Below are positions 1-4,833 of a stretch of DNA of 4,833 nucleotides, piece after piece. The first letter of the stretch is position 1; each line of letters opens with the position of its first letter. Both the position numbers and the translations under genes were made by a program. The notes beneath the pieces were generated by a model. The model did no database searches. It had not been told where the DNA came from and saw only the letters and a list, made by a program, of their open reading frames with translations. The DNA comes from a virus (lineage: Duplodnaviria > Heunggongvirae > Uroviricota > Caudoviricetes), in the IMG/VR virus record IMGVR_UViG_2548876865_000014; one strand, written 5' to 3'.

Positions 1-70
1 AGAGTACCACCCGCGGTGACTGCTCTGACTTAACCGACTCGTTCAGACTTTCTTCGCGAATATCCTGCAT
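1..70 (-). CDS. L: Minor tail protein L-like, N-terminal fragment (23 codons; gene continues beyond window start)
   Basis: Minus-strand ATG at 70..68 overlaps the M stop TGA (72..70) as TGATG. Hand translation of the reverse complement of 1..70 gives MQDIREESLNESVKSEQSPRVVL, closely matching the lambda gpL N-terminus as I recall it (MQDIRQETLNE...). Not in the ORF track because it is truncated by the window edge. Confidence 0.7.
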   Translation of the reverse strand, partial: MQDIREESLNESVKSEQSPRVVL

Positions 71-411
71 CAGTTCACCACCTGCTCAATCGTACAACTG
101 AAATCACTGTACCTGGCGTTATCTGTGACGCTCCACTCCCGGCACACCACCCTCACCGTCCGGTTATGTTTCGGCGGTCGCCACAAAAAGGCACGGTAAC
201 CACCATGCCAGGATAAAAATTCATCCAGCCAGCGCCGGGTTGGTTCATCCGTCACCCGGAACACCGCCTGAAACGTCTTCAGTCTGGCATTAAGTCCCGT
301 CGGTCGGCGCTGTTCATAACCGTCACCAAACCGAACCCTCACCACCGACGGTTTCTCACTCACCTGCATCCCTTCACGCGGGACCAGATGCAGCGTTTTT
401 ATCTCAGCCAC
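70..411 (-). CDS. M: Minor tail protein M (lambda gpM-like), 113 aa
   Basis: ORF track 70..411. The start is GTG at 411..409, preceded by GGAGGA (419..424) with 7-nt spacing. The protein has an RVRFGDGY motif and an ...EQVVN C-terminus like lambda gpM (by recall). Its start overlaps the tape measure stop, and its stop overlaps the L start. Confidence 0.85.
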   Translation of the reverse strand: MAEIKTLHLVPREGMQVSEKPSVVRVRFGDGYEQRRPTGLNARLKTFQAVFRVTDEPTRRWLDEFLSWHGGYRAFLWRPPKHNRTVRVVCREWSVTDNARYSDFSCTIEQVVN

Positions 412-3400
412 TCAGCATTCCTCCGTCACGTCGCATGGACAGCATCACCGCCTGCACCCGCTGGTCAATCAGCTGCACAAGACTGCCTGCCGCCTCCGCC
501 CCTATCTGTCCGTTAGCCCCGTCATTCTGAATGGCGATGTGGTAGACCGGGGAATACACCAGACCGGCACTGCCGTTCATACTGCCCACCGCGCGTACGC
601 CCAGCGAGCCATCCGCCGCCCGGGTCAGGGGCATAATGGCTTCAGGTCCGGCTTCCCCCATCAGCCCGGCCCCTTTTGCAAACGCAAAGTACGTGGGCGT
701 GTCCACAATGCTGTTGCTGTACGCACTCAGGTTTGCCGAGGTATACACGCCGCCTTTTGCATTGGCCACCGCACCGCCCAGCCAGTCACCAATGCTGCCA
801 ATAAATCCTCCCGCACCGGACATACCGTTTGCCGCCGTCTTAATTCCGTTGACAATCGCGGCATTCATAAGAACTTTTGAGATTTCCTGCAGTACGGATG
901 AGGCCCAGTTGCGCCATTCCACTTTGTTTCCGTTCAGCATCTCCGTGATGTTATTCACCATCCCTGAGATACCCTCCGTCGCAAGCTGTGCTGCCTGTGA
1001 AGCGTAATCGGATGCATTGTCCACCCAGTTACTGAGCCCCTCCTGCAAGCCTTTCTGCCAGTCCGCACGCTGCGCATCCGATTCGGCATAAAAGGCTGCC
1101 TGGTCCTTAAGGCGTTCGCTCAGATACTGCGCGTTCTGTGCCCGTGCCTGTCTGTAAAAATCCTCACTGATATCCCCGGTCTGATACTGAGACTGAAGGT
1201 CCGCATCCTTCTGGCGGAAGCTGTCGCGGATCTGCTGCAACTCCCGCATGCGTTCCCTGGCTCGTTCTCCCTGCCCGTATCCCAGCAGTTCGGCTTCATT
1301 TGATGCACGCGCAGCCACATTATCATTCTTCAGGGTCTCTTCCCGGGATCGCAACTGTTCCCGGATTTTTTGCTGGTCAATCAGGGCCGCGTTACGCAGC
1401 AGTTCCTGCTTCTGCATCTCCGTCAGGGTTTTCAGTTCGCCCTGCGCAGTCTGGTACTTCAGCTTCGCCAGCTCTGTATTCTGACCCGCCAGTGCCAGTT
1501 GCTCTTTCTGCTGCTTCAGTAGCCGGGAAAAACTGTCTTCCGCTTTTTCCGTCTCTGATTTTCCACCCCGGGATTTAGGTTTGTTCGCCTCGTTATTACG
1601 CCAGGCTTCCAGAGCATTACTGATATAACGCTGTCTCGCCTCCTGATACGAATCCCCCACAAAACCAAGGTCATCCGCCGCATACCCCAGCCGGGCACGC
1701 TCTTTTTCCTCCCCCTTCAGTCGGGACAGGGCCAGCTCACGTTCTGTTTTTGTCAGGGCGCTCTGCTGTTTATCATCCAGGGTGGCCTGCGGCAGCCGTA
1801 ACGGTACATTCACCAGTCCCTGACGCTGCTGAAGCAGTTCATTCCCCAGCCCCAGCAGACGGTTGAATTCCGTATGCTGACCGTTCATAACCAGCATGGA
1901 CTGGTACACCTTATTCTGCTCTGCCGCCTGCTGACGAATTAACGCCACACGACGGTCTTCCAGCCCGGCAAGCACATCCTGAATGGACTGCACTTTTTCC
2001 TGCATCTGTGCCAGACGGGACTGCTCAACGGCAAGCTGCTCTGTTGCCTGAGAAAGCCCTTCCGTCACGGTCTTCACCGATGTCAGATGGTTTATCATGA
2101 ATCCGTCACCGGTTGTCCAGCCAGGGTTAGCCAGAACATACTGATATCCAGCGATTTTTTCCTGCAGGGATTTCACCCGGCTGGCCTGTTCATCAATCAG
2201 CCGGTTCTGCTCTGCCAGCGCCGCCCGTGTTCGTCCTTCATTATCTGAGGCTTCAGGCAAAGACATTGACGGCGTTTTATGCGCGATTTCATCTATCGTC
2301 AGTGCATACTGGCGCGCTGACTCCCTGGCCTGCTCCTGATTCTGGTACAGCGTATACCATGCTGCTGCCCCCAGCATCACCAGTCCGGGTACGCCACCAA
2401 CCAGTCCCAACGCACCAGTCATCAGACGTGAGCCCACCGCCGTTGTACTGTTCAGCTCATTCTGGGCTGCGGTTCTGGCAGCAATATTTCTGTTCAGGCG
2501 TTCCTGTGTGGCCGCCAGACGGGCTTCTGCAGCAATCTGCATCTCCGTCCCGCGGGCTGCCGCCACAGCCTGCTGTGCACGGTACACTGCTGCCCTTGCC
2601 CGCGCCGTGGCAATCTGCGTCCCCCTGAGCTGTGCTTCCGCCAGTGCCACTTCATTACGTGCTGCCGTCACAAGTCCTGCCGTGGCAGACACCGCTCCGG
2701 AGGCCATATTGCCAAAGTACCGGGCAACCCCGACGGCAACCAGCGCCCCCGCGGCTGTTGCCACATTATCAATATTACCGGCAACACCGTTCAGCACGCC
2801 GGAGAGCGTTTTTGTCACCCCGCTGGCTTCATTCGCGCCACCCACCCAGGCCATAAAGGCGTTTTCCACCTTTGTGATCCCGTCAGAGACCGTTTCCGGC
2901 ATGGCGGCATATTCATCACGCAATACCCCCAGCTGGCTGATTAACGCAGGAACGACTTTATCCGCCGTCAGTTTGCCGTCGTCCGCCATCGCCTTAAGGT
3001 CTTTACGGGCCACGCCCATACCCGCAGCCAGTGCACGTACGATCCGGTCTCCGCTTTCATTGACCGAATTAAATTCCTCACCGCGTAACACACCCTGTGC
3101 CAGCGCCTGGCTGAACTGGGTGATCACCGAGCCCGCCTCTGCCGTACTGGCACCGGAGATTTTCAGCCCCGTGGAAATGGCCTCCGTCACCTTCAGCACA
3201 TCATCAGCACTGTAACCATATTCACGCATTGAGGCTGCCGAGCGGGCAAACAGGGCCGCATTATCTGAAAATGCCGTGCCCGTCCGCTGGCTGATATCCA
3301 TCAGCACTTTCTGTGATGACGAAAATTCATCGGATGACTGCGACGCCTGTTTCAGTCGGGCATTCACGGAACTCCATTCATCGGCCAGAGAAATCAGGTG

Positions 3401-3646
3401 TCCGGTGGCAAAGGCACCTGCAAATGCCCCCGCCGTTCCGGCAGCTGAAGCGCGGATTTCCGTCAACTGGCTGTTCAGCTCAGCCAGGGCGCGTCGCTGC
3501 TCCCGGGCGACTGCGGCAGCCTGACGCCCGCCATTCTGCAGGGTCCGGTAATATTCACTGCCCATGCGGGAAGCCCGCTGGATCTCCGACTGGAATGACT
3601 GCGAATTTGCCGAAATTTTGATAATCAGTTCACGTAACGTCGCCAT
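404..3646 (-). CDS. H: Tail tape measure protein (lambda gpH family), 1080 aa
   Basis: ORF track 404..3646. ATG at 3646..3644 is preceded by GGAG (3655..3658) with 8-nt spacing. The protein has a long Q/E/R/A-rich region of likely coiled-coil character (by inspection), Gly-rich hydrophobic segments (e.g. LMTGALGLVGGVPGLVMLGAAAWYTLY), and a C-terminal region (...FAFAKGAGLMGEAGPEAIMPLTR...IQNDGANGQIGAEAA...RRDGGMLSG) resembling the lambda H C-terminus (...NNDGTNGQIGP...MRDGGLFSG) by recall. It sits between the G/GT chaperone pair and M. Confidence 0.93.
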   Translation of the reverse strand: MATLRELIIKISANSQSFQSEIQRASRMGSEYYRTLQNGGRQAAAVAREQRRALAELNSQLTEIRASAAGTAGAFAGAFATGHLISLADEWSSVNARLKQASQSSDEFSSSQKVLMDISQRTGTAFSDNAALFARSAASMREYGYSADDVLKVTEAISTGLKISGASTAEAGSVITQFSQALAQGVLRGEEFNSVNESGDRIVRALAAGMGVARKDLKAMADDGKLTADKVVPALISQLGVLRDEYAAMPETVSDGITKVENAFMAWVGGANEASGVTKTLSGVLNGVAGNIDNVATAAGALVAVGVARYFGNMASGAVSATAGLVTAARNEVALAEAQLRGTQIATARARAAVYRAQQAVAAARGTEMQIAAEARLAATQERLNRNIAARTAAQNELNSTTAVGSRLMTGALGLVGGVPGLVMLGAAAWYTLYQNQEQARESARQYALTIDEIAHKTPSMSLPEASDNEGRTRAALAEQNRLIDEQASRVKSLQEKIAGYQYVLANPGWTTGDGFMINHLTSVKTVTEGLSQATEQLAVEQSRLAQMQEKVQSIQDVLAGLEDRRVALIRQQAAEQNKVYQSMLVMNGQHTEFNRLLGLGNELLQQRQGLVNVPLRLPQATLDDKQQSALTKTERELALSRLKGEEKERARLGYAADDLGFVGDSYQEARQRYISNALEAWRNNEANKPKSRGGKSETEKAEDSFSRLLKQQKEQLALAGQNTELAKLKYQTAQGELKTLTEMQKQELLRNAALIDQQKIREQLRSREETLKNDNVAARASNEAELLGYGQGERARERMRELQQIRDSFRQKDADLQSQYQTGDISEDFYRQARAQNAQYLSERLKDQAAFYAESDAQRADWQKGLQEGLSNWVDNASDYASQAAQLATEGISGMVNNITEMLNGNKVEWRNWASSVLQEISKVLMNAAIVNGIKTAANGMSGAGGFIGSIGDWLGGAVANAKGGVYTSANLSAYSNSIVDTPTYFAFAKGAGLMGEAGPEAIMPLTRAADGSLGVRAVGSMNGSAGLVYSPVYHIAIQNDGANGQIGAEAAGSLVQLIDQRVQAVMLSMRRDGGMLSG

Positions 3647-3693: not shown

Positions 3694-4373
3694 TCATGAC
3701 TGTGCTGCGAAGCTCAGCGCGTCTTCCAGCGCCGCAAACGGATCCACCTCCGGCTTATCCTCATCCTCGCCCCAGCAGAGCATGGCGTCCTTCAGTGCAA
3801 CATTCATCCCCTGTGCCCCAAAAACCGCTTTCACGATCTGTGCATTACGGATATCCCCGCGCTCATCACCCAGCGGGGATACCCTGTCGAACTCCATCCA
3901 CATCATCGCCTCGCTCACACTCAGGCTGTGCCGCAGTTCGGATAAGGTGCGCCCCAGACGGAGCGCAAGTCGCATCAGAAAGCGAATTTCCGGGCGGGCT
4001 ACTTTTTTCTGGCCGACTCTGCATCAGCGATCAGTTCCAGTGCCTGACGCAGCAACCGGGCATGTACCGGACCATAGACGGCCAGCACCTGCTCACGGTC
4101 GTCCGGAGCGAACACCCGCTGCAGATCCGTATCACACAGGACATCGCAGAACAGCGTCACATCCGCTTCCAGGTTACGGCGGGTTTTCGCCACCACCGAC
4201 AGGGTATCGTCATCCTCTCCATCACCATTGAGCACTTCCTGCCACAGATACCAGGCCTCTGCCGAAGGCTCCCGCAGCACCACGCTGACATTACCCCATT
4301 CCGGCACCTTCACCGTTTTATGACGAAACCCTGACAGTCTGGCCAGCGCCAGCGTTTTCAGATCCTTTTTCAT
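3694..4373 (-). CDS. Tail assembly chaperone fusion product (G-T type) made by programmed -1 ribosomal frameshift at 4002..4008; about 226 aa
   Basis: The T-like ORF (track 3694..3975) is in the -1 frame relative to the chaperone ORF. Hand translation in the -1 frame from the heptamer gives ...RKK-VARPEIRFL-MRLALRL... with no stop before the T ORF. The T portion has a W.EFDR..PLG.ER.D.R motif, which I recall as typical of phage tail assembly protein T. The position immediately upstream of the tape measure gene matches lambda G/GT. Confidence 0.72.
3999..4373 (-). CDS. Tail assembly chaperone (G-like, zero-frame product), 124 aa
   Basis: The track ORF 3999..4421 starts at an ATG that would overlap the upstream Ig-like ORF. 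The in-frame ATG at 4373 (MKKDLKTL...) is preceded by AAGGGGA about 9 nt upstream and lies 14 nt after the Ig-ORF TAA, so I take 4373 as the start. The protein is acidic (DGEDDD) and ends ...ARKK directly at the slippery heptamer and TAG stop. Confidence 0.78.
   Translation of the reverse strand: MKKDLKTLALARLSGFRHKTVKVPEWGNVSVVLREPSAEAWYLWQEVLNGDGEDDDTLSVVAKTRRNLEADVTLFCDVLCDTDLQRVFAPDDREQVLAVYGPVHARLLRQALELIADAESARKK
4002..4008 (-). other. Programmed -1 frameshift slippery heptamer A_AAA_AAG
   Basis: Minus strand reads AGA AAA AAG TAG in the chaperone frame. The heptamer A-AAA-AAG is in correct X_XXY_YYZ register, immediately 5' of the stop, and the downstream T-like ORF is open in the -1 frame (plus strand 4002..4008 = CTTTTTT). 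Confidence 0.7.
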
Positions 4374-4387
4374 GATGACCCATCCCC

Positions 4388-4762
4388 TTATCCGGCGGCT
4401 GCGCTCACTGTCACGGTGCATTCAACAGACGTCACACTCTGTGCTTTCTCTGCCGAATCGGTCACCACGCAGGTATATTTCCCCGCATCAGCGGACTGCG
4501 CACCTGGCTTACTGAAGGTGTCTGTCGTCTGCCCGTCAACCGGCTGACCATCCTTCTTCCAGGCGTATTTATACGGCGGCGTTCCCCCGTTGGCACTGAC
4601 TGACATTGTCAGCAGCGCACCTGTATTCACGGTAAGTGTTTTATCCAGATTTTTCACAAACGCCAGCGGTACCACAAAGGACACCGGTTTGCCTTTCATA
4701 CGCAGTGAAAACGTTGCTGCCACCACGCCGTTGGTACCGGATGACCAGGTGTGCTGACGCAC
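4388..4762 (-). CDS. Ig-like domain protein (major-tail-protein C-terminal-domain-like), 124 aa; start codon uncertain
   Basis: ORF track 4388..4762. The first in-frame start is GTG at 4762 with no convincing SD. The sequence ...PPYKYAWKKDGQPVDG...DAGKYTCVVTD...VECTVTV has the Y.W...G / D.G.Y.C pattern of Ig-like decoration domains found on phage structural proteins. The position just upstream of the chaperone gene corresponds to the major tail protein (gpV) slot. Confidence 0.65.
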   Translation of the reverse strand: MRQHTWSSGTNGVVAATFSLRMKGKPVSFVVPLAFVKNLDKTLTVNTGALLTMSVSANGGTPPYKYAWKKDGQPVDGQTTDTFSKPGAQSADAGKYTCVVTDSAEKAQSVTSVECTVTVSAAAG

Positions 4763-4833
4763 TTCCGCCAGGAACTTAGTAAGCGTGCAGCAAGAACCGT
4801 ATTGACGGGGATGTGTTATTCAGTCGGCAGTGC

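Follow-up and report, generated by a model that had tools for sequence, protein, structure and literature searches.

An Ig-like open reading frame at a contig end is the 3' part of a prophage tail-tube gene split by ISEc22

Tube proteins with a C-terminal Ig-like domain are standard in siphophages, as in lambda (gpV), T5 and YSD1, where the tube and the Ig-like domain belong to one polypeptide (PMC8718954). The tube protein of SPP1 gains an FN3 domain through a translational frameshift (PMC8718954). A table of IS66-family elements in putative prophages, ISEc22 among them, lists 8-bp flanks (PMC6963479). The Ig-like open reading frame (ORF) described here is almost certainly the 3' part of a prophage tail-tube gene split by an ISEc22 insertion.

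The window, i.e. the whole stretch of 4,833 nucleotides that was analysed, is the reverse complement of contig AIBV01000311.1 (L008) of assembly GCA_000446965.2. Its features are collected in Table 1. A preliminary description, made from the letters of the window alone, had remarked that the Ig-like ORF is cut off from any upstream coding sequence by stops in all three minus-strand frames, and that its only upstream start is a GTG at 4762 with no good Shine-Dalgarno sequence. Translation of the reverse complement of 4763..4833 bears this out, with one stop in each frame, at the positions claimed. The ORF listing offers no start between the TGA and GTG 4762, and the bases that lead into it, ggcggaaGTG, hold no properly spaced Shine-Dalgarno sequence. 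By itself, the three-frame stop pattern is weak evidence, being only mildly unusual: stops in all three frames are found in 6.4% of all 71-nt segments on the same strand of the window and in 11% of random 71-nt sequences of the same composition. The site is nevertheless real, because homology to an intact phage gene ends abruptly at 4778/4779 and homology to an insertion sequence begins there.

This switch emerged from a megablast search in which window 4300..4833, read on the minus strand, was compared with 50,697 phage records and 5,426 complete E. coli genomes. Hundreds of matches with 98-100% identity were obtained, annotated 'major tail subunit' or 'major tail protein' and then 'tail assembly chaperone'. 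Every one of these phage and E. coli matches starts at query base 56, which is window position 4778 (range, query 56..534), and none of them covers the first 55 query bases. From 4778 onward, the matching tail genes, with 98.5-100% identity, are intact major tail genes of Stx-type lambdoid phages and E. coli prophages. Likewise, a pairwise alignment with phage YYZ-2008 gives near-identity from 4778 downward and no similarity above. Thousands of sites on chromosomes and plasmids of E. coli match the terminal 55-64 bases of the window, and more than 2000 E. coli genomes contain IS copies that match the 55 nt and are labelled 'IS66-like element ISEc22 family transposase'. The junction itself is rare. 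An exact 32-mer across 4779/4778 had 0 matches in a contig collection with one genome per species, and none of the 5,426 complete E. coli genomes has the window junction (best coverage, 90%); in these genomes a 64-nt junction query found only 96.9% matches, at other IS copies.

Elements of the IS66 family have terminal inverted repeats beginning 5'-GTAAGCG, and an 8-bp target duplication is expected of them. In the window, a terminal inverted repeat ends ...CGCTTAC (reverse complement GTAAGCG) at 4779, the final base of the right inverted repeat; GTAAGCG is the reverse complement of window 4779..4785. The full element is present in a 5.1-Mb contig of assembly GCA_964048225.1 (L003), which, like L008, was found by look-up of the exact 124-aa product and which shows 0 mismatches to all 4833 window bases. 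Window 4779..4833 is identical to L003 9930..9984, the end of a 2454-bp IS (7531..9984) with GTAAGCG... inverted repeats. The left end of this IS reads GTAAGCGTCGTC... and the right end ...GCACGCTTAC; over its full 2454 bp it is 100% identical to copies annotated ISEc22. The three-gene set of the family, tnpA and tnpB together with a tnpC that carries DDE_Tnp_IS66, is present in L003, whereas the window retains the last five codons of tnpC only.

The end of the transposase gene is fixed by annotated copies. In ISEc22 copies, ...ACTGAATAA forms the last bases of the annotated transposase CDS, and ...CGCTTAC those of the element. In the L002 copy, this CDS ends at 3518, on the sequence gcactgccgactgaataa, its last bases being exactly ...GCACTGCCGACTGAATAA; the element ends 37 nt later, ...GCTGCACGCTTAC, and the opposite element end begins GTAAGCGTCGTC. 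The tnpC gene stops at TAA 4818..4816 and also contains, out of frame, the TGA of 4822..4820. Two of the three stops are thus IS sequence, and the third, TAA 4778..4776, belongs to the native gene. The preliminary description had called for extension upstream and identification of the gene ending near 4776..4822; that gene turns out to be the IS transposase gene tnpC and not a tube gene.

Table 1. Features of the window and of the complete element in contig L003 (window coordinates unless L003 is stated)
Feature	Coordinates	Strand	Basis or remark
gpM-like minor tail gene, 113 aa	70..411	(-)	open, identical to L003
Tape measure gene, 1080 aa	404..3646	(-)	open, identical to L003
Tail assembly chaperone (G-like), 124 aa	3999..4373	(-)	intact, downstream; Pfam Phage_TAC_1
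3' fragment of major tail gene, codons 110-238 and stop	4388..4778	(-)	putative pseudogene remnant
124-aa ORF	4388..4762	(-)	ORF listing; GTG start corresponds to Val115, an internal codon for the 238-aa intact protein
Ig-like (I-set type) C-terminal domain	4424..4660	(-)	ORF residues 35-113; intact protein 149-227
Tube-domain C-terminal remnant	4661..4778	(-)	intact-protein residues 110-148
Right-hand copy of target duplication TAAGTTCC	4771..4778	(-)	only copy visible in the window
Last 55 nt of 2454-bp ISEc22 (IS66 family)	4779..4833	(-)	orientation same as phage genes
Last five tnpC codons (ALPTE) and TAA stop	4816..4833	(-)	translation and annotated ISEc22 transposase end
Frame from 4833	TAA 4818..4816	(-)	reads ALPTE, stop
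Frame from 4832	TAA 4778..4776	(-)	reads ...HAY, stop
Frame from 4831 (frame of the Ig ORF)	TGA 4822..4820	(-)	reads TAD, stop
tnpA	L003 7612-8016		HTH_Tnp_1
tnpB	L003 8013-8360		TnpB_IS66
tnpC	L003 8409-9947		512 aa; Pfam LZ_Tnp_IS66, zf-IS66, DDE_Tnp_IS66

Both sides of the insertion can be read in L003, where the genes follow in the order tail completion, 128-aa ORF, tnpA, tnpB, tnpC, 124-aa Ig ORF, chaperone, T and tape measure protein. The 8-bp duplication TAAGTTCC flanks the IS on both sides (L003 7523..7530 and 9985..9992). Empty target sites, seen in L001, L004 and L013, read GGGCTTTAAGTTCCTGGCGG, and there TAAGTTCC occurs once. The TAA 4778..4776 sits in the target duplication, out of frame, and the intact gene has the same TAA. 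On the left side of a simple insertion, the 5' tail-gene fragment would end ...GGGCTTTAAGTTCC and be followed by the IS start GTAAGCGTCGTC; this left junction would read ...CCGGTAAGGGCTTTAAGTTCC directly joined to GTAAGCGTCGTCTCAGC. The 128-aa ORF (L003 7197..7583) is the 5' fragment itself. It consists of 111 native tube residues and 17 residues from the IS left end (RKRRLSTVWQILKFLRE), and it gives a faint match to Phage_TTP_11. The assembly to which the window belongs shows the right junction only, the 5' fragment and the left copy of the duplication being seen only in L003.

The window stops 55 nt into the IS, and the left junction lies outside it. Moreover, ISEc22 is a multicopy element (some genomes have about 20 or more matching places), and its copies could recombine with each other. 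In the source strain, the 3' fragment could therefore have come to lie beside an IS with unrelated DNA on its other side, through an IS-mediated deletion or inversion or through inter-copy recombination. Such a rearrangement is very unlikely in view of L003, which is identical over the 4833 nt and has a clean insertion, an 8-bp duplication and an intact 5' fragment. That the junction might be an assembly artefact, a chimeric contig end where phage sequence was joined to a repeat, is barely conceivable. The window is indeed a short draft contig, and its end falls in a repeat, but the identical right junction is found in four independent assemblies (L003, L007, L008 and L011), including the 5.1-Mb contig and two metagenome assemblies, and the target duplication is a signature of real transposition.

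Removal of the IS and of one duplicate from L003 restores a 717-nt ORF with a 238-aa product. This protein matches WP_001275441.1, annotated 'major tail subunit' in E. coli 4/1-1, with 100% identity; with gp59 of phage YYZ-2008 the identity is 98% over the 238 aligned residues. The IS breaks the gene at codon 111/112 of 238, inside the predicted tube domain. The limits of this domain, about residues 8-141, come from Pfam alignments that remain below cutoff: Phage_TTP_11 with 24.6 bits (cutoff 28.4) over residues 8-102, and Phage_tail_2 with 23.1 bits (cutoff 23.8) over residues 50-141. The tube identity is backed by the position of the gene and by the 'major tail subunit' annotation. The profile search of the Ig ORF that had been proposed at the outset confirms the Ig-like domain, with I-set (35.4 bits, cutoff 23.7), Ig_3 (38.3, cutoff 30) and Ig_2 (34, cutoff 27) all above the Pfam cutoffs. 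PDB sequence matches involve mainly the Ig domain and lead to phage tail and decoration proteins, e.g. 9ncf_S, 9c2d_S, 8zvi and 5lxk. The 124-aa ORF opens with ~34 residues from the end of the truncated tube domain, which are neither a linker nor a new N-terminus; the ORF is the longest left in the 3' remnant and starts at the internal Val115.

Comparison with homologous prophages, also suggested in the preliminary description, reveals an intact fused tube-Ig gene. Among the complete E. coli genomes that carry the 717-nt gene, 1244 of 1245 have it uninterrupted and annotated 'major tail subunit'. A single intact ORF is thus found in the relatives and is missing in the window, where the IS splits it. 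This organization speaks against the first of the three readings that had been offered, a standalone Ig-like protein made by coupled reinitiation. More generally, a functional standalone Ig-like protein, whether a decoration protein made by reinitiation or a product of tnpC read-through, is scarcely credible. To its credit, the Ig domain is complete, free Ig-like decoration proteins exist in other phages (PDB 8zvi and 5lxk, 'Decoration protein'), and a scan between tnpC and the ORF detected no terminator-like site, so that read-through transcription of the remnant is possible. However, no relative has a separate gene, the separate ORF being found only at an IS, a contig end or an N gap. The ORF would have to start at an internal Val without a Shine-Dalgarno sequence, it carries the ~34 truncated tube residues, and a promoter scan around the IS end and the ORF start returned no promoter-like site. 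Besides, without a tube protein there would be no tail to decorate. The hallmarks of a Hoc-like standalone protein, namely a start and ribosome-binding site of its own and conservation as a separate gene, were not found for this ORF.

The second reading had the Ig domain joined to the tube protein by recoding. The FN3 extension of SPP1 provides a siphophage precedent (PMC8718954) for an Ig domain that would be added to an upstream tube gene by a programmed -1 or +1 frameshift, in the manner of gp17.1*. Here, the upstream ORF encodes an IS66 transposase, there is no slippery site at the Ig ORF junction, as had already been pointed out, and intact relatives encode tube and Ig in a single frame; such a frameshift is practically out of the question. 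Indeed, the upstream frames consist of IS transposase and IS non-coding sequence. A -1 shift from the ALPTE frame was rejected since this frame is that of the transposase, and a +1 shift from the HAY frame was rejected since it is IS non-coding sequence. None of the features of an SPP1-type system (an overlapping upstream tube gene, a shift site, conservation of both in relatives) was found at this locus.

The third reading, a disrupted major tail gene, was the correct one. The cause of the disruption is an ISEc22 insertion with an 8-bp target duplication, and the IS had gone unrecognised in the preliminary description. The course of events is as follows. In a lambdoid E. coli prophage resembling Stx phages, ISEc22 transposed into the major tail gene. 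Transposition generated a second copy of the 8-bp target TAAGTTCC and cut the gene of 238 codons at codon 111/112, midway along the predicted tube domain. The draft contig breaks inside the repeated IS, leaving the last 55 IS nucleotides and the 3' gene fragment. The insertion is probably recent, judging by the 100% identity that the flanking phage sequence still shows with intact alleles.

Judged from its sequence, the 3' fragment appears to be a pseudogene remnant that no longer encodes a functional protein, and this copy of the prophage is probably unable to make a tail tube unaided. It would then be defective, unless the missing function were supplied by another lambdoid prophage. The rest of the tail module (70..3646) is open and identical to L003, and the IS insertion is therefore the sole visible lesion. 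The chaperone gene downstream of the remnant is also annotated in L001 and L013, and the tail operon continues normally past the remnant.

Some other features of this tail region deserve mention. A canonical -1 slippery heptamer, A_AAA_AAG, is found at 4008..4002 on the minus strand, just before the G stop. From this site the -1 frame is open into the T ORF, the T frame extending over 3694..about 4008. The heptamer is the conserved G/GT frameshift site of lambdoid tails. T itself is called as 69 or 93 aa by different gene callers. A GC-rich hairpin followed by a T run (cccgccgcgtgcgggtttttt; L003 7140..7196, L001 2606..2675) lies downstream of the tail completion gene and ahead of the major tail gene's ATG. 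The annotated start of the major tail gene differs between sources. The RefSeq record of YYZ-2008 gives a 261-aa protein with a GTG start and reads through the hairpin, and PGAP gives 238 aa with an ATG start.

Other IS66-family insertions were encountered in the same tail gene (gene coordinates refer to L013:1175-1891). In E. coli strain 1449 (NZ_CP184069.1; split-gene locus, L015 960..3510) the gene is split by ISEc23 at nt 211-218, with the 8-bp duplication GAGATTTC. As in the window, an IS66-family element has split the gene, and PGAP annotates both 'major tail subunit' halves of strain 1449 as incomplete pseudogenes. The strain 1449 insertion differs from that of the window in the element (ISEc23, not ISEc22), in its opposite orientation and in its site. 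In L005 1..70, an ISEc23-like end adjoins TGTTTCCG, at nt 305-312. The contigs L006, L009, L010 and L012 start (position 1) at GTTTCCG, at the same nt 305-312 site, and probably represent the same insertion.

These contigs also correct the notion that all contigs with the 124-aa ORF break inside ISEc22, which is wrong for L005, L006, L009, L010 and L012. In all five, the TAAGTTCC site is uninterrupted and the break or insertion lies 15-22 bp further upstream. Another source of the same ORF is the metagenome scaffold L004, where at 8050..8240 an intact target site is followed by an N run and a ~45-nt duplicated stretch of the same gene. This is a scaffolding artefact, which also led the gene caller to emit an identical 124-aa ORF.

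Altogether, three independent IS66-family insertions (ISEc22, ISEc23) lie within 124 bp of the 717-bp gene, at nt 211-218, 305-312 and 327-334. The clustering could be due to a hotspot, to selection or to sampling. It is rather unlikely that IS66-family elements prefer this tail gene or that knockout of the tube gene is selected for in a widespread E. coli prophage. If true, it would mean a target hotspot, or recurrent prophage domestication via tail loss.

The locus exemplifies a known and routine phenomenon, in which an IS common in E. coli turns a structural gene of a prophage into a pseudogene. Its practical lesson is that when an ORF is cut off by stops in all frames at a contig edge, a mobile-element boundary (here, the GTAAGCG repeat) should be tested before recoding is invoked. 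With respect to other ISEc22 insertions in E. coli, the mechanism shows no difference: the same tnpA, tnpB and tnpC, the same GTAAGCG repeats and an 8-bp target duplication. What is specific here is the site, nt 327-334 of the tail gene. The likeness to the gp17.1/gp17.1* pair of SPP1 is only superficial, an Ig-fold segment that is out of frame with what lies upstream; unlike in SPP1, the upstream gene here is a transposase gene, there is no slippery site and the relatives use a single frame. The closest counterpart of the reconstructed protein is the lambda gpV type, to which it corresponds in its C-terminal Ig-like domain, preceded by a probable N-terminal tube domain, and in the place of its gene, with the tail completion gene on one side and the G/GT chaperone genes on the other. 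It differs in that the Ig domain of lambda gpV is of the Big_2 type (PMC8718954) whereas the one described here is of the I-set/Ig_3 type, and in that the gene is broken in the window.
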